DNA from: Promethearchaeota archaeon
GTDB taxonomy: Archaea > Asgardarchaeota > Lokiarchaeia > Sigyniarchaeales > SOKP01
Length of the DNA stretch: 64,000 nt
NCBI GenBank assembly: GCA_048941015.1
Contig: JBHLNZ010000009.1
Coordinates: 16,169-80,168 of the forward strand
Direction: 5' to 3'
The translations under genes were made by a program, and so were the position numbers. Below the pieces are notes generated by a model. The model had not been told where the DNA came from and did not search any database. It was given only the letters and a program-made list of their open reading frames with translations. Shown in pieces: positions 45,019 to 59,299 of this stretch. The first letter of the stretch is position 1. Each line of letters opens with the position of its first letter.

Positions 45019-45582
45019 ATGCAACTTGATCATATTGATAAGCAAATTATAAATGCTCTGTTTTTAAACGGACGTGAGAGTCTCACTAATCTTGAAAAAA
45101 TTATTTTCAAATCTAAGCAAGAAACAATGAGTCATACGGGAATCTCTAAAAGAATTTCTAGATTAGAAGAAGCAGACATTCTTAAGGTTCAAGCAAATGC
45201 AAATATAAAAAGATTAGGTTATAAAGCTTTATTTATTCTGATGGAAATGCGGAATTATGAAGAAGAAAGAAAGATAATTGAAGCTTATTCAGAATGTCCA
45301 AGAGTATTTTTGTTAGCCCATGTTACAGGACAGTATAATTTAATATTAGGGATAATGGGGCAGAGCATTGAAGTTTTACATAGATTTCTTAATTATTGTG
45401 GCCCTACCAATAAGGAAGGTATATTACATTCAGCAACTATATTTGTCTCAGAATTAATTACTCCTACATTTTTGCCATTCAATATATTTAGTTCAGAAAG
45501 TAAAGAACAAAAGTGTGGTAACATGTGTGCAGAATGTACCGCATATTTAGATGGTAAATGCAGGGGTTGTGGAGAATTTTAA
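45019..45582 (+). CDS. Lrp/AsnC regulator with Cys-rich tail
   Basis: HTH, ECPRV, TGQYNL, CGNMCAEC..CRGC. Confidence 0.88.
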   Translation: MQLDHIDKQIINALFLNGRESLTNLEKIIFKSKQETMSHTGISKRISRLEEADILKVQANANIKRLGYKALFILMEMRNYEEERKIIEAYSECPRVFLLAHVTGQYNLILGIMGQSIEVLHRFLNYCGPTNKEGILHSATIFVSELITPTFLPFNIFSSESKEQKCGNMCAECTAYLDGKCRGCGEF

Positions 45583-45801: not shown

Positions 45802-46365
45802 ATGGAATTAGACAAAATTGATAAACAAATTCTAAATGCATTATTCATTGATGGAAGAGAGAGCTTAAGTAACTTAAGTAACCAAGTCGAAAAATCAGAT
45901 CAACAAAAAATGAGTCATACAGGAATAGCAAAAAGAATTTCTAAATTAGAAGATTCTAGAATTTTAAAGGTTCAAGGAAATATTAGTATTTCAGAGCTTA
46001 ATTATTATACGGCTTTTATACTTATGGAAATGAAAAATTATGACGAAATTCAAACCATAATAGATCAATACTCCGAATGCCCAAGAGTTTTCTTATTAGC
46101 TCATGTGACTGGACAATATAACTTAATTTTTGGAATAATAGGACAGAATGTTGATGTTTTACGCAGATTTATAAATTATTGTGGTCCTACTAATAAAAAA
46201 GGTATTTTGCATTCAGCGATTATCTTTGCTTCTGACATTATAAACCCAAAATTTCTACCTATAGACCTTTTTAGTGGCGTTAGTAAAGAGCATAAATGTG
46301 GTAATATCTGTAAGGGTTGTGAAGCATTTCTCAAAGGCGATTGCTGTGGGTGCGGTAATTTTTAA
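45802..46365 (+). CDS. Lrp/AsnC regulator with Cys-rich tail (tandem paralog)
   Basis: Same length as and collinear with 45019-45582; CGNICKGC..CCGC. Confidence 0.88.
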   Translation: MELDKIDKQILNALFIDGRESLSNLSNQVEKSDQQKMSHTGIAKRISKLEDSRILKVQGNISISELNYYTAFILMEMKNYDEIQTIIDQYSECPRVFLLAHVTGQYNLIFGIIGQNVDVLRRFINYCGPTNKKGILHSAIIFASDIINPKFLPIDLFSGVSKEHKCGNICKGCEAFLKGDCCGCGNF

Positions 46366-46915: not shown

Positions 46916-47566
46916 GTGAGTAATTTAATGAAAAAAAGAATAATCCCTCTTTTAATAATCAGTAGCTTTCTTTTAATAACAATTGGAGGAGTTGTAGCAT
47001 ATCCTTCTTCTATTGAGACTTTTGCTGGTGGATCACATACAGGATGTCATGCTGGTGTTAGTCCTACTACTGAGAGTGTTGGTGCGACAGTAACCTGTAA
47101 TTCTGTAGAAGGTACTTCTTTAAATGCAGGTCAACAGTTCACTATAAATGTTGTAATTGAAAATTTTACTGAAGCGTTAACTATAGATAGAAATAGTATG
47201 GTGAGTGTAGCAGTTCCCCGTACTCGAGGCGATAATGCAGCATTTGGCACCCTTTTAGAAGATCCTATAAGAGAACATGATGTTACATTAGATGTTAATG
47301 GAGATTCAAATGTTTCGGTAACTTTTAACTTAATAGCTCCATTCACTAACGGAGATTATGATATCGTCGTTGATGTTTTAGCTGCCGCAAATCATACTGA
47401 TGGAAGTGCTTTAGGTATAATTTATGCAACAGATACTTTAAGCATAACAGTCAGCGGTGGCCTGATTCCTGGTTTTGAAGTCTATACCTTGATTGGAGTG
47501 CTTATAATAACAACTGCATCAATATTAATGATTGTACGTCGTAGGAAACTTAAAGCTTCAAAATAA
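46916..47566 (+). CDS. Exported HxxCH-motif protein (Reeler-like beta domain) with IPGF sorting tail
   Basis: Signal peptide ..VVA|YPS, SHTGCH, TFNLIAP, IPGF-TM-RRRK. Confidence 0.75.
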   Translation: MSNLMKKRIIPLLIISSFLLITIGGVVAYPSSIETFAGGSHTGCHAGVSPTTESVGATVTCNSVEGTSLNAGQQFTINVVIENFTEALTIDRNSMVSVAVPRTRGDNAAFGTLLEDPIREHDVTLDVNGDSNVSVTFNLIAPFTNGDYDIVVDVLAAANHTDGSALGIIYATDTLSITVSGGLIPGFEVYTLIGVLIITTASILMIVRRRKLKASK

Positions 47567-47776
47567 AATCTAATTCTTTATTATTTTTTTTTTTATTTAT
47601 AGACCTATATTAACGATTAATCAATAAGAATAAATTTTAAAAACAAATTAAAATAACTCCCAATTAAAAGGAATTAAAGATAATTTTTAATCAATATTAA
47701 TACAACTAATATTTACCATAATTATACAAATATAAACACATATATTACAAAAGATTATATTCATCTGTGTGATAAA

Positions 47777-48487
47777 ATGAAGGAAATCTCTAACTGGTTC
47801 AAAAGAGACTATTTACTTGTCATCTCAATTTCATTACTAATTATAAACTTATTTTTAATTTTTTTATTAACATTCTTTAGTCGTATCGTTTACATGATTT
47901 TTTTTTATCATGTTTCGTCGGCTTGGCTTTCTTACTTTTCATTTGCTATAAGTTTAATTTGTCATATTTTATACTTAAAACAAAAAAAATTGTCTTGGAA
48001 TCGTCTTGGTAAAAATAGTATTATTGTAGGAGAATTTTTTTGTGCCGTAACTCTTATTACAGGGTCGTTATGGTATAATGCAACCTCAGGAGGTTATAGT
48101 AATATTTATTGGCAATGGAGCGATGCAAGACAGACCATGACTTTAGTCTTATTCCTTTCTTATCTATCTTATTTAATTTTTGGGAATATGATTGAAGAAA
48201 GAGAAAAAAAAGCTAAATTAACTTCTATATTGGGGGTCATACTTTTTCCCACAGTTCCTCTAAGTTATTTTTCTGCAATTATATTCGCAAGTCTACATCC
48301 GTTAATAAATCCTAATCCAAGTCAATCAGGATATATTTATTGGGACTTCATGAAGCTATTTATATTATTTCTTAATTTAATAGCAATATCTCTATTTTTC
48401 ATTCATGTTGTAAAAGATTTAGTAGAATTAGATAAAACTAAAGAAAGATTAAATGAAATTATACAAAAAAATTTGAGAGAAGAATAA
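47777..48487 (+). CDS. ccmC: Cytochrome c maturation heme transfer protein CcmC
   Basis: FYHVSSAW, TGSLW...YWQWSDAR (WWD-like), SLHP, 6 TM. Confidence 0.88.
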   Translation: MKEISNWFKRDYLLVISISLLIINLFLIFLLTFFSRIVYMIFFYHVSSAWLSYFSFAISLICHILYLKQKKLSWNRLGKNSIIVGEFFCAVTLITGSLWYNATSGGYSNIYWQWSDARQTMTLVLFLSYLSYLIFGNMIEEREKKAKLTSILGVILFPTVPLSYFSAIIFASLHPLINPNPSQSGYIYWDFMKLFILFLNLIAISLFFIHVVKDLVELDKTKERLNEIIQKNLREE

Positions 48488-48492
48488 AAAAA

Positions 48493-48636
48493 ATGTCACA
48501 GCTTCTATTAGACTCCATTACAATGACAATTAGTTACGTTTTATTTTGGTTCGTTATTATTATTTTAATTTTATATCCTAAATTGCGTCTAAAAAAAATA
48601 CGAAAAAGAATTAAGAATTTGGAGAAAAATAAATAA
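48493..48636 (+). CDS. ccmD: CcmD-like single-TM peptide (not in ORF track)
   Basis: Hand translation MSQLLLDSITMTISYVLFWFVIIILILYPKLRLKKIRKRIKNLEKNK*; YxxxW TM and basic tail; sits between ccmC and ccmE. Confidence 0.7.
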   Translation: MSQLLLDSITMTISYVLFWFVIIILILYPKLRLKKIRKRIKNLEKNK

Positions 48637-48651
48637 GAGTAAGAGATTAAA

Positions 48652-48990
48652 TTGAAAAAAACGAAAATCATAGCTATTTTAGCAGTTATATTATCTTTAA
48701 GTCTTATTATTATATTAATATTTATCAATATACGCCCATATCTTAAAGTTTCCCAAGTTGTTTCGAATCCAACAAAATATGATAATCGTGAAATTCAAGT
48801 AATAGGGATTGTACAAGATTTTTCAGGAGGCAATTTTAATTTAACAGAAAATACCGATAGAATACTAATTGATGTATCTGAGATAACAATACCAAGTGAA
48901 TTGGAAAATGGACTTCAAATAGTTGTAATGGGGCGATTTAATGCAACATTGATTTTAGAAGCAATACAAATTCTTACTCAATGTAGTTAA
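48652..48990 (+). CDS. ccmE: Heme chaperone CcmE, Cys type, C-terminally short
   Basis: N-terminal TM, YLKVSQV, IQVIGIV, IVVMG...EAIQILTQCS*. Confidence 0.85.
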   Translation: MKKTKIIAILAVILSLSLIIILIFINIRPYLKVSQVVSNPTKYDNREIQVIGIVQDFSGGNFNLTENTDRILIDVSEITIPSELENGLQIVVMGRFNATLILEAIQILTQCS

Positions 48991-48997
48991 CGCTTAT

Positions 48998-49723
48998 TTA
49001 ATCAAAAAGCAGATTTTGAGAGACTAAACTCAAAATTGAAGCCATAAGAATGATATGTGCAACTAAAAATAAAATTTCATAAAGATAATCAAATATTAAT
49101 GCTAATTCTAACAATTTGATATTAATTGATATTATAGGAGTTGTTATTGGCAATATTATTGGAAATAATATAATTGGCAAAATAAATGATTTTTTTTTAG
49201 CATACATAGAAAGTGCTGATACTATTGTACCGCAGATTGATAGATCTATTGTAGGTAAAATAATACCTAAAACCAAATAATTCATTAATTGAGAAAATTT
49301 TAAATCAGGTATTAAAGGATTAGAAATAAAGAAACTAAAAAGAAGAAGTATAATTTCAATAAAACTTAATATTATAAAGCAGAAAAATATCTTGCTAAAT
49401 ATTAATATGTTAGCAGATATAGGTGAAGAAATTAAACCCCCTAAAGTCCCAGAGTCTTTTTCTTTAATAAATAATTTTGCCATTACAAATATTAGAGTAA
49501 AAAAAATTATTAACCATAACTCAATTATAAAGATCTCAAGCGGCATACTCTGATATTGTGTACTGAAGCTATATACAGAAGAAAAAATAAATATAGAAAT
49601 AATATCAAAAAGAAAGATTGAAACTATATCATTTATTTGGCGAACTTCTGATTTTAAATCCTTTCTTAATATCAAAAAAAATAACTTAATACTTTGTTTC
49701 AATTTCAGTTTCATTTGATTCAC
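48998..49723 (-). CDS. ccmB: Heme exporter permease CcmB
   Basis: RKDLKSEVR, FIKEKDSGTL, LPIILFPIILP. Confidence 0.88.
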   Translation of the reverse strand: MNQMKLKLKQSIKLFFLILRKDLKSEVRQINDIVSIFLFDIISIFIFSSVYSFSTQYQSMPLEIFIIELWLIIFFTLIFVMAKLFIKEKDSGTLGGLISSPISANILIFSKIFFCFIILSFIEIILLLFSFFISNPLIPDLKFSQLMNYLVLGIILPTIDLSICGTIVSALSMYAKKKSFILPIILFPIILPITTPIISINIKLLELALIFDYLYEILFLVAHIILMASILSLVSQNLLFD

Positions 49724-49735
49724 TAAAATATTACC

Positions 49736-50458
49736 TTAAAAATATGATTCTATTTGAATTTCGCTATAATTTTCTCTTGTAAGGGATTTGTTAATCTTTC
49801 CCTTCTTTAAAATAATTAAATCATCACAAATTTTTGATAATAAATCGATTTTATGGGTAGTAAGAATTATAGTCACATTTTTTTCATTTTTCAAATTTTG
49901 AAGAAAGTTTGTCGATAATTCAGTTGCTTTATAGTCTAAACCTGAAAAAGGCTCATCTAAAAATAAAATGGATGGATCATGAATTAGAACTCTAATTAAT
50001 TCAACTTTTTGTTTCATTCCATGAGATAAGTTTCGAATGGGTTCATCTAGCCAGTCCTGGATTTCAAATAAAGTAGTATACTTCTCTATTTTATTTTTTA
50101 TATCATTTTTATTAAAATTATAATGTAGATTATCATAAAATCTTAAATTTTCACTGATCGTCAATTCCTCATAAAGAAAGGATTCATCAGTAGTAATCCC
50201 AGTTTTTTTTTTAATATAATATGGATCTTCCTCATAATTATATCCTTGGATGTTAACTTTTCCAGAAGAAGGTTTTAATAACCCTGATAAAATCTTAATT
50301 AGTGTTGTCTTTCCCGCTCCATTCGCTCCCGCTATCCCGAAAATTGTATTTTCTTTTACTTTAAATGAAATATTTTTTAACGCAAAAAAGTATCCAAATT
50401 GTTTTGAAACATTTTTACAATTTATGATTTCTTTATTTTTGATTGCCAAATTCTTCAA
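49736..50458 (-). CDS. ccmA: ABC ATPase CcmA
   Basis: GANGAGKTT, LSHGMKQ, LDEPF, TTH; directly upstream of ccmB. Confidence 0.88.
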   Translation of the reverse strand: MKNLAIKNKEIINCKNVSKQFGYFFALKNISFKVKENTIFGIAGANGAGKTTLIKILSGLLKPSSGKVNIQGYNYEEDPYYIKKKTGITTDESFLYEELTISENLRFYDNLHYNFNKNDIKNKIEKYTTLFEIQDWLDEPIRNLSHGMKQKVELIRVLIHDPSILFLDEPFSGLDYKATELSTNFLQNLKNEKNVTIILTTHKIDLLSKICDDLIILKKGKINKSLTRENYSEIQIESYF

Positions 50459-50554
50459 CTTATACTTATAAGATTTAATTTTAGAGTTTCTTATAAAATG
50501 AACTGGTTTAATTATTTTAAATTTAAATTAATAAATAAAAAAAATATTAAAAGT

Positions 50555-53245
50555 TTATTTAATAAATCTCTTAGTTCTAGATTTCATCCATAGAATAATA
50601 GATATAATCGGAATAGCTAAAGTAGTTGAAATTATTAGAGTTAAATCAAATCCCGATACTAATTCTTGATTAGAATTAATATTTGGTTGAGATACAATTT
50701 TTTTAACTGTCGCATCTTTAAATCCTAAGTGTGCTAATGTATCATTTGCATAAAACCTAATTAAAATATCCCCATTAGGCATGTTATCCCATAAATCTTG
50801 TTGTAACGTTTCGGTTAAACCTTGGATAGTTATATTATTAGACCAGTGAGTTCCATTATATAATGAATACCATATACTATCTAAGTTTGGTTCTGTTATG
50901 GAAATAGTAAAAATTGGAGCGTTCGCTCCGCTTTCTATGGGAAATGAAAGTACTGACAAAATGGGAGCACTTATATCTCCAATTATATTAATGAAGTTTG
51001 TAGTATTTGTATTTCCAGCAAAGTCAGTAGCATTTACTTGAACTGAATATGTTCCATCTTCAGTAATCATAAACGTAGTATTCCATATATCACTCCCTTG
51101 ATAATTTAGTTGAATGAATTGAATCTCACTAGGGGTTATTATCGTAGCCCATAATCCATTTGCATTGATGTCCGAGCTTCTATTTATAGCGGTAATTACT
51201 GTTAGACCATTTGATGGATTTGGAGAAACATAATCCAGTATTATATCAGGGGCAGAGATATCACCTGCGATATCAAGTAGATTAGTGGTATTTGTATTTC
51301 CAGCAAAGTCAGTAGCATTTACTTGAACTGAATATGTTCCATCTTCAGTAATCATAAACGTAGTATTCCATATATCACTCCCTTGATAATTTAGTTGAAT
51401 GAATTGAATCTCACTAGGGGTTATTATCGTAGCCCATAATCCATTTGCATTGATGTCCGAGCTTCTATTTATAGCGGTAATTACTGTTAGACCATTTGAT
51501 GGATTTGGAGAAACATTATCCAGCATTATATCAGGAGCATCAATATCGCCATAAAATGAATCTATTGTATATCCAATATTAGAATAAAGATCTGTCCCAT
51601 TTATTTTTACAATATGAATTCCTGTATCAAGAACTGTATAATTAGTTATCCATGTTCTTGGGCCACCTGTAGGGTACATCGTCCTATAAATAACTGTGTT
51701 ATTTGGAGCTGTTATATTTAACAATGGATTTCCAAATAACGGTTCATTTGATATAACAGTAATATATGTAAATCCATTTGATGGATTTGGATTTATTGTA
51801 CTTACAGTAAGAATTGGGGGGAAAAGATCGTCCGATACAACTTCAAAATACCTTTTGCTTACATTTACATTTCCAGCAGCATCCGTAATGTTAATTTCTA
51901 TCCAATAAAATCCTAGAGGGATAAAACTATTATTTTCAAAACTAAACAATCCGCTAGTTGATCCACTTGGATCAATTTGTGGTTTATTTTGAGCAACACC
52001 CCATCGAGAATCGTTTATAAAAATATTTAAAATATTACTACCTGTTCCATATGCCCATCCATTTATTGCAATAACGTTTCCTCCAATACTCTCTCCATCG
52101 TTTCCAGGATTTGTAATATTAACAAAAGGATTCACTATATCACCTGTAATGGTAGTTAATGTTGAGATATTGACATTTCCCGCTAAATCAGTAGCATTTA
52201 TTTGAACTGAGTATGTTCCATCTTCTGTAATAGTAAATGTGTTATTCCATTCATCTCCTCCTTGATAAAGTAAATCAAGAAAAACTTTTTTAGCACTTGG
52301 GGTTGTTATAGTTGCTCTTATTCCATCATTATTGATATCTGAACTGTAATTAATAGCACTTATAGTAGTTACTCCATTTGAAGGATCTGGGAGTACACTT
52401 TGTAGGTTAATCGATGGTGCTGTATTGTCAATAATCACATTTACAGATTCAGTATTATTCACGTTTGAAGGACTTGCACTATCATTTGCTTTTACAGTTA
52501 TGCTATAAAAACCATCAAATGCAGATAAAGTGTCCCATACGGCATCATAATATGAATCGACGTTTAAAGCCATTAGAATTGTTTGATTGTATGAACTTGC
52601 ATTAGTAATTTCTGCCCAGACTGAATCAATACCACTACCTCCATAGTCAACTACACTTGCGTTTATTATTATATTGCCTCTTCCATAGTTATTATTTAGT
52701 GGGTTTAAAATCGAAACTTCAGGCGGTAAGGTATCTGATGGAGCTGATTGAACTGTAATTGCATAATTACTTGATGCCCAGATGGTTTCGCTCCCACTTT
52801 TTCTATAAATCGCATCAGCGGTTAAGATGTATAATTGTTCTGAAACAGGAGCTGTAACTTGAAAATTAAATATCGCTGAATCTCCAGATGTAATATCTGC
52901 AGATACCATAGTAGTATTAAAACTAAATTGTTTGTTGTTTCCTCTGCCTGGATTTCCACTGGGGAATCCAAGTTTAAGCTCCTTTCCGTCCGCTTCATAG
53001 AAACTTTTTACTTGAACAGAAAGCATAAAAACCTCTCCAGGATCTACAGTATCTCCAGAATTCGATACAAATGATATATATCCAGTACTACTTTGAGTCG
53101 ATGAAGCAAAGTGGCACGAAGATCCATGAGAAGTTCCGTTAAAATCATCAAAATAGCTTGTATAAGCAACAGTAAATCCCGTCAATACAATTAGAAAGAA
53201 GATTGTAATTATTAGAGATAGAATCTTTCTTTTTCTATTTTTCGT
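50555..53245 (-). CDS. Large surface protein: HxxxCH domain on a stalk of Ig-like repeats with C-terminal anchor (track start 53185; signal peptide extends to about 53245)
   Basis: In-frame upstream KNRKRKILSLIITIFFLIVL, ..TVA|YTS, SHGSSCH, FQVTAP, repeated D..AP...DG.Y...ATD.AGN units, VSGF-TM-basic tail. Confidence 0.8.
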   Translation of the reverse strand, partial: TKNRKRKILSLIITIFFLIVLTGFTVAYTSYFDDFNGTSHGSSCHFASSTQSSTGYISFVSNSGDTVDPGEVFMLSVQVKSFYEADGKELKLGFPSGNPGRGNNKQFSFNTTMVSADITSGDSAIFNFQVTAPVSEQLYILTADAIYRKSGSETIWASSNYAITVQSAPSDTLPPEVSILNPLNNNYGRGNIIINASVVDYGGSGIDSVWAEITNASSYNQTILMALNVDSYYDAVWDTLSAFDGFYSITVKANDSASPSNVNNTESVNVIIDNTAPSINLQSVLPDPSNGVTTISAINYSSDINNDGIRATITTPSAKKVFLDLLYQGGDEWNNTFTITEDGTYSVQINATDLAGNVNISTLTTITGDIVNPFVNITNPGNDGESIGGNVIAINGWAYGTGSNILNIFINDSRWGVAQNKPQIDPSGSTSGLFSFENNSFIPLGFYWIEINITDAAGNVNVSKRYFEVVSDDLFPPILTVSTINPNPSNGFTYITVISNEPLFGNPLLNITAPNNTVIYRTMYPTGGPRTWITNYTVLDTGIHIVKINGTDLYSNIGYTIDSFYGDIDAPDIMLDNVSPNPSNGLTVITAINRSSDINANGLWATIITPSEIQFIQLNYQGSDIWNTTFMITEDGTYSVQVNATDFAGNTNTTNLLDIAGDISAPDIILDYVSPNPSNGLTVITAINRSSDINANGLWATIITPSEIQFIQLNYQGSDIWNTTFMITEDGTYSVQVNATDFAGNTNTTNFINIIGDISAPILSVLSFPIESGANAPIFTISITEPNLDSIWYSLYNGTHWSNNITIQGLTETLQQDLWDNMPNGDILIRFYANDTLAHLGFKDATVKKIVSQPNINSNQELVSGFDLTLIISTTLAIPIISIILWMKSRTKRFIK
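51003..51516. repeat. Intragenic tandem duplication, 285-bp period, 229 bp identical (51003-51231 = 51288-51516)
   Basis: Direct base-by-base comparison; corresponds to one 95-aa Ig-like unit. Confidence 0.92.
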
Positions 53246-53362
53246 TGAAAATCACCTTTAACTTTTTATTATTACGTTAAATTTTTAAACTTAAAATCAA
53301 ATTTTATTAAAATTTAGAATTAATTTAATCAAAAATTTGATATCTTTTAATCTTTTGTTAAT

Positions 53363-53438
53363 CAGAGTAATTTAAACAATCGATTTGCTTTCAGTTTCAA
53401 GTTTAAACATTTCTAAAAAAAAAGTTTAAATTATAAAT
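53363..53438. promoter_or_regulatory. GTTT-N7-AAAC box triplet (half 53363, full 53394, near-full 53424)
   Basis: GTTTCAAGTTTAAAC and GTTTAAATTATAAAT; 31/30-bp spacing; upstream of the stalk protein gene. Confidence 0.6.
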
Positions 53439-53504
53439 TAAGAATTTGATAAATTGGCCTGATAAAAAGGATAGTTTAAAAAATAAGACTCAATAGTTAT
53501 AAGT

Positions 53505-55214
53505 TTAAGTAACATTCTTTTTTAAAAAAAATAGTATAAAAATAGAGGGGATAATCCCAACTAGTAGAAAAATAAATCCAGAAATATAAAAAATATCTAA
53601 AATCATACCATAATTAATATCAATTAAAGTTCCTATCAAGATAAATGATATTCCTCCATGAATTATTGTCTTTGAATTTATTCTAAAAAATCTCTGGATT
53701 CCCATTTTAAGATTATTTCTCTTTATTAGTTTAAAGAGTGAAGCAAATAGAGCATAATAATATATAGACATAAAAGGATTAATCCAAATGTCAATCAAAA
53801 CTACTAATACTAATGATACAATCAATTGAATTAAAAATGTAATAACCATTGTAAGAGTTATCCATTTCACTTTAAAAATATCTTGCAAGGAACAAAAAAT
53901 AAGTGATACTGCTAATATAATAGCTAAAATAAAGGTGCTAATTATAAAAAAGTTCGGACCAACCAAAATTGTATTAATATTTATGAAATTTGAGATGAGA
54001 TTCGTTAACGGTGGAATTATAAGCCCAAAAGTGCACACAAATGATAAACAAAATAAAATAAGATAACTTAAGTAATCAAAAAAGTTCCTAATTTTATGAT
54101 ATTCTTCTAAAAGATAATTTAAAACTTCATAAATTACATACATAGCTAATATCAATAAACTAATACCAATTACTACAACCCATAAAGCTAATCCTGCGTC
54201 CCCAGTAAATGCATGAAGAGAGCTTAATCCTCCTCCTCTAGTTATAAGAGTAGCAAACATTATTGAAAAGAAAATTAAGATTGCATTTACTTTTAAAATT
54301 TTGGCATTTTTCACTTTGAATATATTGGAATGAAAATAAGCAGTACAAAAAAACCAAGGAATGAGAGAGACTACTTCAACCGGATCCCAACCCCAATACC
54401 TACCCCAACTTGAAGTAATTTTTGCCCAATAAGCCCCTAAACTAATGCTTAAGGTAATAACTAACCATCCAAATTTTAAACTAAAATTATAAAATGATTT
54501 CTGATAAGGATTTTTTAAAGATAATTTTGGCTTTATAGTTTCTACAATATTTATAGTAAATGGGATTAAAAAGATGGCATATGCAATAAAAGTAAAGAAG
54601 GGATGCCAAATCATAAAAGGAGATATTAAGATTGGATTCAGACCACGACCATCTGGATATATTATAGGTTCTTCAACTTTAAAAGGATTTAATGAAAACA
54701 AAATTACTAAGAAACTTATCGAGATTAGCATGGAAATTACGCTTGACCAGATAAAAACAGAGTCTTCTTTATCTTGGTTTTTAATCCGATAAAAAAAAAT
54801 AACTATTGAATTAAATACCATCCAAGTCATTATTGAACCTGCTTCTCCTGCCCATATTGCTACAATTTTATAAATAAGTGATAAATTTGATTCACTATAA
54901 CTCCATACATATACAAGATTATAATAGTCATTCACAAAACCATATTCTAAAAGTAAAAATATTGAAATTGATAGAGCCATGTTGAGTGATGCTAAATAAA
55001 AATAATTCTCTCTTTTTAAAATTAAATAGATTAAATCAATAATCACAGTTATAATATTCAAAAAAATTAATATATTTGCGAGATTGGATATTATTTTAAT
55101 TTTTAAATCTAAATTTACTAGATTCAATAAATTAGGAATAATTACAGCGATTGTTATAATTATTATTAAATCAGATATTATAACTGTTTTTAAAGAATTT
55201 TTATTAAATCTCAT
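53505..55214 (-). CDS. ccmF: Cytochrome c synthetase CcmF (compact form)
   Basis: WAGEAGS, GLNPIL..IWHP, GAYWA..WGRYWGWDPVE, AYFH, SLHAF, IIHGG. Confidence 0.93.
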   Translation of the reverse strand: MRFNKNSLKTVIISDLIIIITIAVIIPNLLNLVNLDLKIKIISNLANILIFLNIITVIIDLIYLILKRENYFYLASLNMALSISIFLLLEYGFVNDYYNLVYVWSYSESNLSLIYKIVAIWAGEAGSIMTWMVFNSIVIFFYRIKNQDKEDSVFIWSSVISMLISISFLVILFSLNPFKVEEPIIYPDGRGLNPILISPFMIWHPFFTFIAYAIFLIPFTINIVETIKPKLSLKNPYQKSFYNFSLKFGWLVITLSISLGAYWAKITSSWGRYWGWDPVEVVSLIPWFFCTAYFHSNIFKVKNAKILKVNAILIFFSIMFATLITRGGGLSSLHAFTGDAGLALWVVVIGISLLILAMYVIYEVLNYLLEEYHKIRNFFDYLSYLILFCLSFVCTFGLIIPPLTNLISNFININTILVGPNFFIISTFILAIILAVSLIFCSLQDIFKVKWITLTMVITFLIQLIVSLVLVVLIDIWINPFMSIYYYALFASLFKLIKRNNLKMGIQRFFRINSKTIIHGGISFILIGTLIDINYGMILDIFYISGFIFLLVGIIPSIFILFFLKKNVT

Positions 55215-55375
55215 TAAAAAATCTAAATTTCAAAAATTAAAAAATATTTTTAAAAAATTATTGGAAATAATATTTAATAAGAGAAGAATAAAAGTAATTA
55301 GGTGCCATTTTTACATTAAAATTTTAAATTCATTAATAATTATTAAATGCAAATTTTATTAATTTTGACAAATGA

Positions 55376-55390
55376 GTTTATAATTAAAAC
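55376..55390. promoter_or_regulatory. GTTT-N7-AAAC box
   Basis: GTTTATAATTAAAAC between divergent ccmF and the gene at 55409. Confidence 0.45.
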
Positions 55391-55408
55391 TATTCAACCC
55401 TTTCAATA

Positions 55409-56275
55409 ATGTTAAATAAAAAAGTCATTCTAATAATTTCTACTTTTGTAGGCGTCATATTTGTCTCTATTCTTTTAAATGCAAATGCTTACCCTAGCTA
55501 TACTCAACCTCATGAAGATTGTCATACAGTTCCAGGAGGTTATTCAATTGGAACTAATATAAGTACATCAAATTCTATCAATGCTTCAGCTGTTATAACT
55601 TTTAATATTACAGCTACTGGTTCAAGCTTGTTTATTCAAGCACCTTCAGATGCTAAAGAAAATAATCAATTTACCATTTTACCCACCACTACTAGAATAT
55701 TAGATAATTCTGGTAATGATTTAAATCCAAATCTAAATGCAATGACAGTTACTTTTAATATAACAGCCCCATCCGAAGATGGATATTATACTATTCTCAT
55801 TTTAGCTGGAGATAATTCTGTCTCTGGTAGTCCACCTCCTTTCGATTACCTAGAGATCGCGTTTAGTATCGGGGGTGTTCTTCCACCGGGCCCAAGAATA
55901 GAAATATTTAATCACTTTGAAATCTATATAGGATTAACGGCCTTATTACTACTATCTATAGGAACAGTTTTAGTATTGATAAATGAAAATAAATTTGTAA
56001 AAATACACGGTATTTTTGCTGGATCTTCATGGATTTTAACACTTATTAATGTTATATCGTTGGTGATTTTTAATCCGTCAATTTGGAGCTCTTTCTCTTT
56101 TGGAATACACTGGTCTCATATCATCTTAGGAGGTGTAGGGTTGCTTACAGGCTTGTTCAGTATGCTTTTTGGAATCGCAGCAGAACGAAAATATGCAAAA
56201 TTAACTGGATATATTACTTTAATTTGTTGGTGGGCTGCTTTCTTTTCAGGTTTTTTAATGGTTCCATTATTTTAA
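55409..56275 (+). CDS. Exported HxxCH domain fused to a 4-TM cytochrome b561-like domain
   Basis: ..ANA|YPS, PHEDCH, FNITAP; TM histidines NHF, KIHG and IHWSHIILG. Confidence 0.72.
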   Translation: MLNKKVILIISTFVGVIFVSILLNANAYPSYTQPHEDCHTVPGGYSIGTNISTSNSINASAVITFNITATGSSLFIQAPSDAKENNQFTILPTTTRILDNSGNDLNPNLNAMTVTFNITAPSEDGYYTILILAGDNSVSGSPPPFDYLEIAFSIGGVLPPGPRIEIFNHFEIYIGLTALLLLSIGTVLVLINENKFVKIHGIFAGSSWILTLINVISLVIFNPSIWSSFSFGIHWSHIILGGVGLLTGLFSMLFGIAAERKYAKLTGYITLICWWAAFFSGFLMVPLF

Positions 56276-56282
56276 AAATTGG

Positions 56283-57800
56283 GTGAAAACTAAAATGAAT
56301 AATTCTAATGCTAAAGAATTAAATACTGAATCTAACAAAGTAGATTCACAAGATATAAAGGAAATAAAAGATAAACGAAATTTTGAAGAGGTTGTGAAAG
56401 AATTTATCTCTCCCTATCACGTTAGTTCCAATCCATATGAACTTGAATCTGCATCCGCCGATCTCACATCACTCCCTTCATACCATTATAAATTTAAAAA
56501 AAATTATCTTGCTAACTTATTAATCCGCCCCGCAGATACAAATAGCCTTTCTATGTTAATAAAAAAATGTAAAGAACGAAAAATCCCGGTAACAATAAGA
56601 GCTGCTGGTACTTCATGCTTCTCCTCAGCCACTCCATCAAAAGGTGGAGTAATCATAGATACGCGCAGATTAAATAAAATATTTAATATTGATAAAGAAA
56701 ATATGACAGCAAAAGTAGGAGTTGGCATTTCTTGGTTAAATTTAATTGAAAAACTTTCTGATTATGGTCTTGCGCCCAAATGCTATCCTACAAGCTTTAA
56801 AACATCTTGTGTTGGTGGTTTTATAGCCACTCCAGGAACTGCTGGTATAGGTGTATTAAAAAATGGATCAATGAAAGATTCGATTCTCAATTTAAAGCTA
56901 GTCCTCCCTGATGGAGAAATAACGAACATTTCGAAAGATTCTAAAGGAGAATTATCCCTCGAAGACATTGTTGGAACTTATGGAATATACGGTGCTATAT
57001 CTGAGGTTGATTTATCTATTACAACGCTAAAAACTTCTTTGGAGATAATTGGTTATGGTTTTAACTCTAACCATGAAGCTATAGAATTTTATCGAAAATT
57101 AAAAAATTCTCTTCCCAATAAACCATTCTTTATATCAATTTCAGAACGAAAATTTGAAACCTATTCACATATTAATTTTCCTGATCAAGATTGGCTAGTT
57201 TGGGCGGTTTTTTATGATGATCCAAAAACAACATCCCAAAATGTATCTACATCAGAAAAATTTGCTTTAGAATTAAACGGAAAAACTGTCGATAAATTAT
57301 ATTTAAAAGAAAAATGGCGTGATATCAGTGATGCTGAAATAGCTATTGGAAGATCAAGTAGAAATCTAATCTTTCAAGAATATTGGATTTCTGATGAGAG
57401 ACTTGAGATATTTATTGAAAAATATCTTAAGAAAAGTCAAAAATATAAATTTCCAACTGCATTATATGCAATTTCGGGGATTCCGGGTTGGACTAGAGTC
57501 AAAGTCTTTGGTTTATCTGATATCGTTAAAACTATTGAATTTTTCACAGTTAAGGCGTTTTTGCATGATCTTTCAGTACAAGCATTCGCACAAGGGGATA
57601 GAGTCTATACCATAGGAATTGTAAATACATTTTATTTGCTTAAATATAGACCAGAATTAGTATCTAAAAGCAAAATATTAAAAAAACAACTAGATCCAGA
57701 GGATTTATTTAATTCTTATCGTATAGTTAAATCTAGGTTAAAATTCTGGAGGATATCGTTACTATTTAACACAGCTAAATTATTATATAAAATTTTTTGA
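56283..57800 (+). CDS. FAD-binding oxidoreductase (VAO/GlcD-like)
   Basis: IPVTIRAAGTS, CVGGFIAT, LVLPDGE, GTYGIYGAI, LDPEDLFN. Confidence 0.85.
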   Translation: MKTKMNNSNAKELNTESNKVDSQDIKEIKDKRNFEEVVKEFISPYHVSSNPYELESASADLTSLPSYHYKFKKNYLANLLIRPADTNSLSMLIKKCKERKIPVTIRAAGTSCFSSATPSKGGVIIDTRRLNKIFNIDKENMTAKVGVGISWLNLIEKLSDYGLAPKCYPTSFKTSCVGGFIATPGTAGIGVLKNGSMKDSILNLKLVLPDGEITNISKDSKGELSLEDIVGTYGIYGAISEVDLSITTLKTSLEIIGYGFNSNHEAIEFYRKLKNSLPNKPFFISISERKFETYSHINFPDQDWLVWAVFYDDPKTTSQNVSTSEKFALELNGKTVDKLYLKEKWRDISDAEIAIGRSSRNLIFQEYWISDERLEIFIEKYLKKSQKYKFPTALYAISGIPGWTRVKVFGLSDIVKTIEFFTVKAFLHDLSVQAFAQGDRVYTIGIVNTFYLLKYRPELVSKSKILKKQLDPEDLFNSYRIVKSRLKFWRISLLFNTAKLLYKIF

Positions 57801-57934: not shown

Positions 57935-59299
57935 ATGAGTGAAAGTAAAGAAGAACAAGATTTAAGAGATGTAGTTACAACAGGTCCTCCTGTTGCAGGT
58001 TTAGTTTCTCCCTCAAAAGAAAATTTAATAGAACCTAAAAGTAAAAAAAAAGAGAAATACTCCTATGAACGTTGCACACATTGTGGTTATTGCCGACATG
58101 TATGTAAGGTTTATAATACTTCATGGTCGGAAACTGATTATGCTGGTGGGCGAAATAGGATCATTAAAGCACTTGATAGTCATGATATTAAATTTGACAA
58201 TGAAAAAATAATACCTTCTGTATTTCGGTGTATGCTTTGCGGTAACTGTAGAGTGGTTTGTCCTGTAGGAATAGATACTTTAGAAGTTTTTCAAAATTTT
58301 CGTAAAGAAGTTGTAAAAAAAGGAGCAATACCTGCCAAGTTAAAAGTTCTAAAAAATTCAATTATCGAGAATAATAATCCCTTTTTAGAAAAACACATAG
58401 ATAGATTTAATTGGTGTAATGCTTGTGAAGAAGGAAAAGAAGCATACGAGCGAACAAAACGAGATCTTGAATCAATAAAGGCAGAAGTTGATCTAAAAGT
58501 TCCTAAACGTATACCTGGTAAAGTTGGTTATTTTGTTGGATGCACTTCTTCATACAGAAATAAAGAGTTAGTAACTGCTACTAGCCAAGTTTTAGCAAAA
58601 CTTGGAGTTAAATTTGTACTTTTTCCTGAGGAACGATGCTGTGGGTCAGTATTATTTAGAACCGGGTTAGAAGATGAGGCTATGGAATTAGTAAAGCATA
58701 ATTATAAAACAATTCTAGAGAGTGGTGTGTCTGAAGTTGTATTTTCTTGTTCAGGATGCTTTTCCACGTTTAATCTCGAATATACTAAGTATGCAGGACA
58801 TAAACTTGAATTTGATCTTTATCATTTAACACAATATGTATTAAAGACTGTTAAGGAAAAAAATTTAAAGATCCGATATACACAACGAACAAAAGAAGAT
58901 CCTTTACTTATTACTTATCACGATCCTTGCCATCTGGGAAGATACTGTGGAGTTTATGAAGAACCAAGAGAACTATTAAATATGATTGAAGGTATCAAAT
59001 TATTTGAGATGAAGCATAACAGAGATATGTCATGGTGTTGTGGTGCCGGGGGTGGAGTAAAAGCCTTATACGGTGAGATTGCAGGTGAGATAGGCAGAGA
59101 TAGATTGATTGAAACACGTACTTGTATGGTAAGAATACGCGAAGACCGTTTAAAAGAAGCATTAGAAACTAACGCTGAAGTTCTTGTTAGTTCTTGTGTT
59201 TTTTGTAAAAATAATTTATTTGAAGTTGCGACTGAAGACAACTCACCTATAAAAGTTATGGATATCTCACAACTTCTTAACGATTGTGAATTCTATTAA
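57935..59299 (+). CDS. HdrD/GlcF-like Fe-S oxidoreductase (two 4Fe-4S motifs and two CCG domains)
   Basis: CTHCGYCRHVC, CMLCGNCRVVCP, YFVGC, CCG, YHDPCHLGR, CCGAGGG. Confidence 0.92.
   Translation: MSESKEEQDLRDVVTTGPPVAGLVSPSKENLIEPKSKKKEKYSYERCTHCGYCRHVCKVYNTSWSETDYAGGRNRIIKALDSHDIKFDNEKIIPSVFRCMLCGNCRVVCPVGIDTLEVFQNFRKEVVKKGAIPAKLKVLKNSIIENNNPFLEKHIDRFNWCNACEEGKEAYERTKRDLESIKAEVDLKVPKRIPGKVGYFVGCTSSYRNKELVTATSQVLAKLGVKFVLFPEERCCGSVLFRTGLEDEAMELVKHNYKTILESGVSEVVFSCSGCFSTFNLEYTKYAGHKLEFDLYHLTQYVLKTVKEKNLKIRYTQRTKEDPLLITYHDPCHLGRYCGVYEEPRELLNMIEGIKLFEMKHNRDMSWCCGAGGGVKALYGEIAGEIGRDRLIETRTCMVRIREDRLKEALETNAEVLVSSCVFCKNNLFEVATEDNSPIKVMDISQLLNDCEFY

Follow-up and report, generated by a model that had tools for sequence, protein, structure and literature searches.

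The archaeal form of System I, the Ccm machinery for haem attachment, is a streamlined one. In Methanosarcina acetivorans CcmABCEF are necessary and sufficient, and the Cys of the CxxxY motif of CcmE is needed for haem attachment; ccmD is described as absent from archaeal genomes (PMC9084895). For the E. coli Ccm, XXXCH and CXXXH variants are very poor substrates: they become stuck in a covalent CcmE-haem-cytochrome adduct, which represents an intermediate of the transfer that has been trapped (PMC3268396). Single-Cys motifs of the form (A/F)xxCH are found in the mitochondrial cytochromes c and c1 of Euglenozoa (PMC8262978). Here we analyse a ccm locus of an Asgard archaeon, at positions 46916 to 56275 of a 64,000-nucleotide stretch of contig JBHLNZ010000009.1 (the window), in which the ccm genes are interleaved with the genes of three exported proteins, named A, B and C, that carry H-x(2-3)-CH motifs. 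We consider it likely that haem c is attached to these proteins through a single Cys, by one thioether, and that the neighbouring Ccm proteins attach it. A covalent bond between His and a haem vinyl, such as is known in CcmE and in cyanobacterial GlbN, is weighed as an addition to the thioether.

The ccm locus and its three probable client proteins

The genome of the window comprises 3.59 Mb in 144 contigs, with 29.4% G+C, and is 95% complete. The genes of the locus are as follows.

46916..47566, plus strand: client A, 216 aa, probable start ATG 46928, signal peptide, mature YPSS, HTGCH, Ig-like domain, Loki-CTERM (PGF-type) anchor
47777..48487, plus strand: ccmC (PF01578, E 6e-16; TIGR01191, E 9e-21)
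48493..48636, plus strand: ccmD-like, membrane open reading frame of 47 aa (PF04995 is the best Pfam match, sub-threshold: E 1.4e-4, 22.3 bits vs 25.6)
48652..48990, plus strand: ccmE (PF03100, E 2.8e-7)
48998..49723, minus strand: ccmB (PF03379, E 1.9e-10)
49736..50458, minus strand: ccmA, ABC ATPase (PF00005, E 1e-31)
50555..53245, minus strand: client B, about 896 aa, leader, mature YTSY, HGSSCH, shared N-terminal domain, Ig-like repeats, C-terminal anchor
53505..55214, minus strand: ccmF, short form of 569 aa (PF01578, E 1e-26; TIGR00353, E 1e-43)
55409..56275, plus strand: client C, 288 aa, leader, mature YPSY, HEDCH, Ig-like domain, then a 4-helix membrane domain

A first-pass annotation of the window had described ccmC-D-E, ccmA-B and ccmF as interleaved with three exported proteins sharing one N-terminal domain. 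Pfam confirms this arrangement, with ccmD recognised only below threshold. The ccmD-like gene has an orthologue in a Loki-type contig (L006), in the same place between ccmC and ccmE and with the same sub-threshold result. The motifs HTGCH (47036-47050, A, plus strand), HGSSCH (53111-53128, B, minus strand) and HEDCH (55511-55525, C, plus strand) lie exactly where they had been placed, and each of the three proteins has the leader, the Y(P/T)S mature start and the F(N/Q)xxAP motif ascribed to it. The predicted mature starts are YPS, YTS and YPS, and the later motifs are FNLIAP, FQVTAP and FNITAP, for A, B and C respectively.

The common N-terminal domain is borne out by comparison of A with B in phmmer (E 1e-7 to 2e-9) and of the A-family with the C-family profile in hhalign (probability 98.6%, E 1e-15). 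The sequence GGSHxGCH is invariant in 4 homologues of A at 62-85% identity. The anchor of A matches NF033507 (Loki-CTERM) with 20.9 bits against a cut-off of 19.9, and B contains Pfam Big_13 and related repeats. Some family members match NF041895 (choice-of-anchor V, NCBIfam), whose curated cut-off is 42 bits, only sub-threshold: the N-domain of B scores 20 bits and a relative, P0199, 37.2 bits, and A and C give no match. With hydrophobic leaders on all three proteins, an anchor on A, and a modelled domain of C that precedes four membrane helices, A, B and C are predicted to be exported and to lie on the outside of the membrane, the side on which Ccm works.

The start-codon position of B is ACG (53245-53243, minus strand), where the two closest relatives have TTG and ATG. 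The leader contains no ATG, GTG or TTG, and the first standard start, TTG 53185, would drop the signal peptide. The ACG may be used as a rare start codon, may have arisen by a recent inactivating change, or may be an erroneous base. Another idea, a start at an upstream GTG with a frameshift in a homopolymer, was rejected, because the relatives align ACG with ATG or TTG.

Remodelling of the Ccm proteins

The Ccm set of the window is like the streamlined archaeal System I (PMC9084895) in having CcmA, B, C, E and F, in the use of Cys rather than His as the CcmE residue, and in CcmC and CcmF that keep the His ligands and a WWD-type loop. CcmH is likewise missing from both, no match to PF03918 having been found in the 95%-complete genome. 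It is unlike that system in that CcmE ends two residues after the Cys and has no Tyr, the CcmC loop has a 4-residue insertion with W-S-D-A-R for W-D-P-R, CcmF is about 120 aa shorter and is without the C-terminal outer domain, a ccmD-like gene is present, and the clients have one Cys and not two.

The WWD loop of CcmC is SGGYSNIYWQWSDARQT in the window and WG-TYWNW-DPRQT in other Asgard lineages (aligned with families f7, f18 and f22). The altered loop contains YWQWSDARQT, and both haem-ligand His residues are retained. CcmE ends in ILTQCS-stop, with the haem-binding Cys retained and with the Tyr of CxxxY and the entire tail absent. CcmF keeps the WWD motif and four His residues, its WGRYWGWDPVE, WHP, YFHS, SLHAF and IIHGG aligning with the CcmF of the sister lineage; the roles of the four His are presumably those assigned in E. 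coli CcmF.

Among the sampled Asgard genomes the client N-terminal domain occurs in two families, the window's own (f1) and its sister (f7), and CcmC, CcmE and CcmF are not alike in the two lineages. Counting five genomes of the window's own family and the further loci where ccmE is visible, the Q-C-S(T)-stop end of CcmE was seen in 11 genomes or contigs. At ten further loci from public genomes, in which C is 51-95% identical, all clients carry H-x(2-4)-CH and every visible CcmE ends in Q-C-S(T)-stop. In all nine f7 genomes CcmE has CPS(K/R)Y plus a tail, and CPS(K/R)Y is also present in f18 and most f22 genomes; the A-, B- and C-type clients of f7 all have CxxCH or Cx3-4CH. The tails were read in f1, f7, f18, f22 and the His-type loci, the contigs of the P0010, xCH and CxCH clades being too short, and a related-locus search with a narrower alignment returned only His-clade genomes.

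The stop codon of ccmE is TAA, TAG or TGA in different genomes, at a kept position. A CxxxY is seen one base out of frame in the window, but the idea that CcmE hides the motif there is rejected, since the shifted frame is unconserved and the stop codon varies in place. Both observations indicate that the stop after Cys-Ser is real. The CcmF proteins are 569-583 aa long in the His-type lineage vs 684-697 aa in the sister lineage, and the short form is without the C-terminal extracytoplasmic domain of about 110 aa. P0010, a CxxCH member of the client family, adjoins a short, f1-type CcmF, showing that the shortening of CcmF is not strictly tied to the loss of the first Cys. The ccm genes remain intact where C has diverged to only 51% identity.

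The genes around ccmF do not keep a fixed order: in the P0010 contig (L003:1-423), what appears by eye to be a fragment of a type I (Sec11/S26-type) signal peptidase stands beside ccmF, and not ccmA or ccmB. The loci of f7 (G140, G087, G137, G005, G134, G149 and G120) are much larger: they contain up to eight copies of the domain, and their giant B-type proteins are 1415-1483 aa long. The membrane domain is also encoded there in stand-alone copies of 136 aa, and four or five CCG/Fe-S paralogues are scattered among the cytochrome genes. In the Loki-type contig L006 (L006:2-1009), two A-like HGACH genes and the ccm cluster are preceded by a gene for a surface protein with a PF09459 domain (EB_dh, DOMON-like, haem-binding) and CQVMCH, a Cx3CH motif; no EB_dh homologue was found in the window's genome.

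The motif column in the client family

An exhaustive search with C gave 76 cluster representatives, and a profile search gave 191 further proteins, all of them unannotated and all from Asgard metagenome-assembled genomes (MAGs) or sediment metagenomes. The family of A, B and C is thus one of Asgard archaea, Ig-like in fold, for which no annotation or publication was found. Neither HxxCH cytochromes nor clients of an Asgard Ccm were found described in the literature searched.

The motifs were counted in 172 collected proteins with a CH motif in the first 75 residues, as follows.

HxxCH: 110
Hx3-5CH: 18
CxxCH: 13
Cx3-5CH: 3
CxCH: 8
without Cys or His upstream of CH: 15

The two-Cys forms CxxCH and Cx3-5CH together make up 16 of the 172. 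In the alignment of the C family (50 sequences), all 50 have the motif His, 47 have the second Cys, and 46 have Pro at mature position 2. Of the 35 rows in which the first motif position is filled, 15 have Cys, 10 have His and 4 have Pro there. When the three families of A, B and C are aligned together, nothing in the motif but C-H is invariant. The CxxCH and Cx3-4CH relatives occupy the same alignment column as the H-x(2-3)-CH of the window. Other clades have Pro, Tyr, Leu, Glu or Gly at the upstream position, or the CxCH spacing, and whole clades have neither His nor Cys there. Every A-, B- and C-type client of the window's lineage, at 51-100% identity, has H-x(2-4)-CH, and this spacing mirrors the Cx2-4CH spacing of the sister lineage. 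Read in this way, the column looks like a haem-c site from which the first Cys has been lost repeatedly.

The variation of the upstream position indicates that the His is not required for attachment; across the sequences compared it is clade-specific and not universal in the family. It had been proposed from the window alone that its locus is a dedicated Ccm variant with one-thioether clients in which the upstream His acts as a second covalent anchor or as a ligand. The comparison supports the variant Ccm and the single thioether; the His does not prove general to the family, given the Cys, His and Pro found at its position.

The tree of C-type representatives requires at least 16 changes among the motif states. 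The C of the window falls in a well-supported clade of eight proteins that all have the His, and the sister of this clade is P0010, with CNSCH. In the tree of the client domain all f7 sequences group in one clade, so that a single change from Cys to His with later duplication is sufficient. The occurrence of the same substitution in three divergent paralogues had been put forward as an argument against sequencing error. It is not independent evidence, because with one state change in the tree the paralogues are not three independent observations. A parallel change from Cys to His in three pre-existing paralogues was considered as well and is unsupported, the f7 clients being one clade and one change being enough.

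The two-Cys members of f7 and of the P0010 type are otherwise like A, B and C: they have the same domain, the X-Pro start after the leader and the motifs DN..F and AP, occur in the same three architectures (A, B and C), and are syntenic with ccm and with the CCG and FAD genes. The f7 members differ in their CxxCH or Cx3-4CH motifs, the CPS(K/R)Y of their CcmE, and their long CcmF.

Co-occurrence with Ccm and the search for other clients

The co-occurrence of the domain, Ccm and haem synthesis was scored in a sample of 151 Asgard genomes that spans the phylum. Of these, 14 contain the client N-terminal domain, and all 14 have PF01578 (ccmC/ccmF). Within the window's genus, genomes with the domain have Ccm and genomes without it lack Ccm. 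Three other families have Ccm without the client domain, as does one f2 genome, in which only the membrane domain is present. Collecting homologues had been suggested as a check on whether HxxCH is conserved and accompanies this ccm clade; the domain was accompanied by Ccm in every sampled genome that has it, and the first His is unconserved across clades. Homologues of the 4-helix domain of C alone are encoded in the Asgard genomes G071, G141, G089 and G012, which have neither Ccm nor the outer domain; hence the membrane module also exists without the c-haem domain.

The absence of CxxCH from the window, reported earlier, was verified for all open reading frames of at least 50 aa. In the 95%-complete genome no PF00034 cytochrome c, no open reading frame with multiple CxxCH, and no credible secreted CxxCH protein was found; the CxxCH contexts that do occur look like Fe-S or zinc sites. 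When the whole genome was searched for a leader followed by H-x(2-4)-CH, A, B and C were the only real genes recovered. On this sequence evidence A, B and C appear to be the only plausible clients of the Ccm in this genome. It had also been foreseen that scans based on CxxCH would miss such clients, and the one-Cys motifs, together with relatives that have CxxCH in the same column, agree with this. Surveys that count cytochromes c by CxxCH would not see the family, and Loki-type Asgard archaea scored as free of cytochromes may have a surface module for electron transfer.

Fold and the sixth ligand

The AlphaFold2 model of C has a predicted local distance difference test score (pLDDT) of 89.6 and consists of an Ig-like beta sandwich and four membrane helices; the domain of A (pLDDT 79) is also a beta-sandwich. 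Fold searches (Foldseek against the Protein Data Bank (PDB), a wide structure search with two models, and the ESM Atlas) gave generic Ig-like, macroglobulin and PapD-like matches for the outer domain, and only generic helical bundles for the membrane domain. A sequence search of the PDB gave no significant match. A similarity search with a language model placed the protein near a Reeler-containing cluster at 0.83; this was not borne out by the fold searches and serves as a lead only.

Cytochrome f is a c-type cytochrome made of a beta-sandwich, with the haem motif near a mature N-terminus that starts Tyr-Pro, and its N-terminal amine is the sixth iron ligand. The clients are like it in the modelled beta-sandwich and in the predicted X-Pro start of the mature protein, Pro following residue 1 in 46 of the 50 C-type proteins. 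They are unlike it in that there is no detectable sequence relation, and B has Thr at position 2. In the structure search cytochrome f (2jxm_B) ranked 29, with Z 7.8 and a root-mean-square deviation of 4.1 over 132 residues, which is no better than the generic Ig-like matches with their Z of up to 11. By analogy, the conserved X-Pro start suggests ligation by the N-terminal amine as in cytochrome f, and is to be taken as a lead only.

A proposed route of haem attachment and the alternatives

The differing Ccm, the clients that alone seem plausible, the CxxCH relatives in the same motif column, and the co-occurrence in 14 of 14 genomes together make haem c held by a single thioether the best reading of the locus. 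According to this proposal, A, B and C would be exported c-type cytochromes with a single haem, divergent representatives of a family confined to Asgard archaea, in which the first Cys was changed to His in this lineage. The invariant Cys would form the thioether, and the invariant His next to it would ligate the iron on the proximal side. The haem would be attached by the neighbouring CcmABC(D)EF, a System I of the streamlined archaeal kind that has been remodelled in this lineage. As single-Cys substrates stall on CcmE in E. coli, we infer that the remodelling lets haem leave CcmE: the altered CcmE tail, CcmC loop and CcmF would release it without a second client thiol, and the upstream His of the client may help as a base, a recognition element or a covalent partner.

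The clients share with the cytochromes of Euglenozoa the predicted single thioether, formed from the second Cys of the motif, and the adjacent His ligand. They differ from them in fold, which is class I all-alpha there and an Ig-like beta sandwich here, in belonging to another domain of life, in the maturation system, which would be Ccm here and is not Ccm there, and in the residue that replaces the first Cys, which is Ala or Phe there and His here. With the engineered E. coli variants they have in common that one Cys plus a His is presented to System I. The single-Cys state is natural and conserved here, and goes together with altered CcmE, CcmC and CcmF. The locus offers a natural System I that apparently accepts one-Cys substrates, and the changes in CcmE, CcmC and CcmF could show how haem is released from CcmE.

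Several points weigh against the proposal. Haem binding by the members of this family is a conclusion drawn from comparison. No haem-protein fold was matched above background, the outer domain being a generic sandwich of Ig or macroglobulin type, and the family alignments show no conserved Met or second His in the client domain that could act as the sixth ligand. The link between the CcmE tail and the client motif is one contrast between two lineages, not a statistical association, and may reflect a single evolutionary event, since the domain tree needs only one change. The genome lacks ALAD and porphobilinogen deaminase and so must depend on haem uptake. Finally, B may be poorly expressed or silent in this genome, given the ACG at its start position.

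In one alternative, a covalent bond from the His nitrogen to a haem vinyl is added to the thioether, the two anchors both being installed by the remodelled Ccm. The upstream His is aligned exactly with the first Cys, the residue that in normal cytochromes c is joined to the haem 2-vinyl; it is invariant in all clients of the lineage (51-100% identity), with a spacing of 2-4 that matches the Cx2-4CH of the sister lineage; H-x(2-5)-CH is present in 128 of the 172 collected CH proteins; and His-vinyl chemistry is established for CcmE (PMC3268396) and for cyanobacterial GlbN. However, the other clades with Pro, Tyr, Leu, Glu, Gly or CxCH indicate that the fold works without the His, and a fixed His might just as well take part in recognition by CcmF or CcmE, in release from CcmE as a base, or in a contact with a propionate. 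We regard the double anchor as unlikely. If it did exist, it would add a new class to the covalent haem linkages of electron-transfer cytochromes, and the truncated CcmE, in which the Cys-haem adduct is without a Tyr ligand, would have co-evolved to pass haem to a nucleophile other than a thiol.

The remaining alternatives leave A, B and C without haem c. The H-x(2-3)-C-H motif might be a Cu, Zn or Fe site, or a redox-active thiol, on a surface adhesin, with the ccm genes kept for something else, such as the handling of haem for the b-type domain in the membrane, or persisting as relics. His/Cys/His triads bind Cu and Zn in many proteins, many adhesins use a generic Ig-like sandwich, B has long Ig repeats, one relative is auto-named 'Cytochrome oxidase subu...' in UniRef, and the organism is unable to make haem. 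Against these stand the relatives with CxxCH and Cx4CH and the conservation of C-H only, a hallmark of haem c rather than of a metal site with three ligands, the synteny of the domain with Ccm and its presence with Ccm in 14 of 14 genomes, and six intact ccm genes that are conserved over deep divergence with no other client. The inability to make haem is shared by the sister lineage, which nevertheless has canonical motifs. A metal or thiol site is in our view quite improbable. It is more improbable still that A, B and C are without a cofactor, decaying or re-purposed, with the Ccm serving an unrecognised client elsewhere in a genome that is 95% complete and divided into 144 contigs, for instance a protein whose motif has degenerated further or whose gene lies in the part not assembled. 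The absence of a canonical start codon in B would fit decay, and another contig does encode a 566-aa open reading frame with a leader-like N-terminus and CxxCH near its C-terminus. Yet C-H is invariant in all clients of the lineage, their genes adjoin ccm in every relative, the domain and Ccm have been gained and lost together within the genus, and no PF00034 or multi-haem candidate was found in the genome.

Neighbouring genes and a possible electron route

Two genes lie downstream of C, as follows.

56283..57800, plus strand: FAD-binding dehydrogenase of the GlcD or D-lactate dehydrogenase type (PF01565, E 5e-32; TIGR00387 glcD, E 4e-29, below cut-off)
57935..59299, plus strand: Fe-S/CCG protein, HdrD/GlcF/TfrB-like (PF02754 CCG, E 1e-30; Fer4_8; NCBIfam TfrB, LdhH and GlcF all below cut-off)

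In every contig that is long enough, those of CxxCH members included, ccmF, the C-type gene, FAD_binding_4 and Fer4/CCG stand in that order. That the FAD and Fe-S/CCG genes always follow C suggests a flow of electrons outward through C to A and B. In this arrangement C would couple the cytoplasmic FAD and Fe-S/CCG dehydrogenase, by way of a b-type haem in its 4-helix domain, to the outer c-haem domain, and electrons would then pass from C to A and B, which are anchored at the surface. The Fe-S/CCG protein is probably the cytoplasmic electron donor to the membrane domain of C.

The di-haem membrane domain of the cytochrome b561 and ferric-reductase type has four conserved His on its helices, which bind two b haems. 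The membrane domain of C has four helices, and only three of its His residues are well conserved. In mature numbering these are H142 (37/46), at the outer end of helix 1, H173 (37/41), at the inner end of helix 2, and H210 (36/39), at the outer end of helix 3; H207 is present in only 23/38. The fold matches to STEAP and cytochrome b6 have Z of about 10, which is no better than for unrelated helical bundles.

The proposed route would link a cytoplasmic dehydrogenase of the 2-hydroxyacid type to the cell surface in a haem-scavenging Asgard archaeon. It bears on syntrophy models, which concern the closest prokaryotic relatives of eukaryotes.

Haem supply

Neither ALAD (PF00490) nor porphobilinogen deaminase (PF01379) was found in the window's genome. 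Because the genome is without the tetrapyrrole pathway, haem must be scavenged. Among the 151 Asgard genomes ALAD is present in 7, none of which belongs to the sampled f1, f7 or f22, and the Ccm-bearing lineages with the client domain look like haem auxotrophs. The f7 family is also without ALAD and carries canonical motifs, which shows that auxotrophy is no argument against the use of haem.

Samples and upstream genes

Near-identical relatives of the genome's proteins come from MAGs labelled Promethearchaeota, Hodarchaeota, Hermodarchaeota, Lokiarchaeota and Thorarchaeota. DNA near-identical to 46916-56275 is present in sediment and mangrove metagenome runs from at least 3 studies; no RNA run is among the listed sequencing runs with such DNA. 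Directly upstream of A are two tandem regulators of the Lrp/AsnC type (45019-45582 and 45802-46365), whose Cys-rich C-terminal tails read CGNMCAEC...CRGCG and CGNICKGC...CCGCG.

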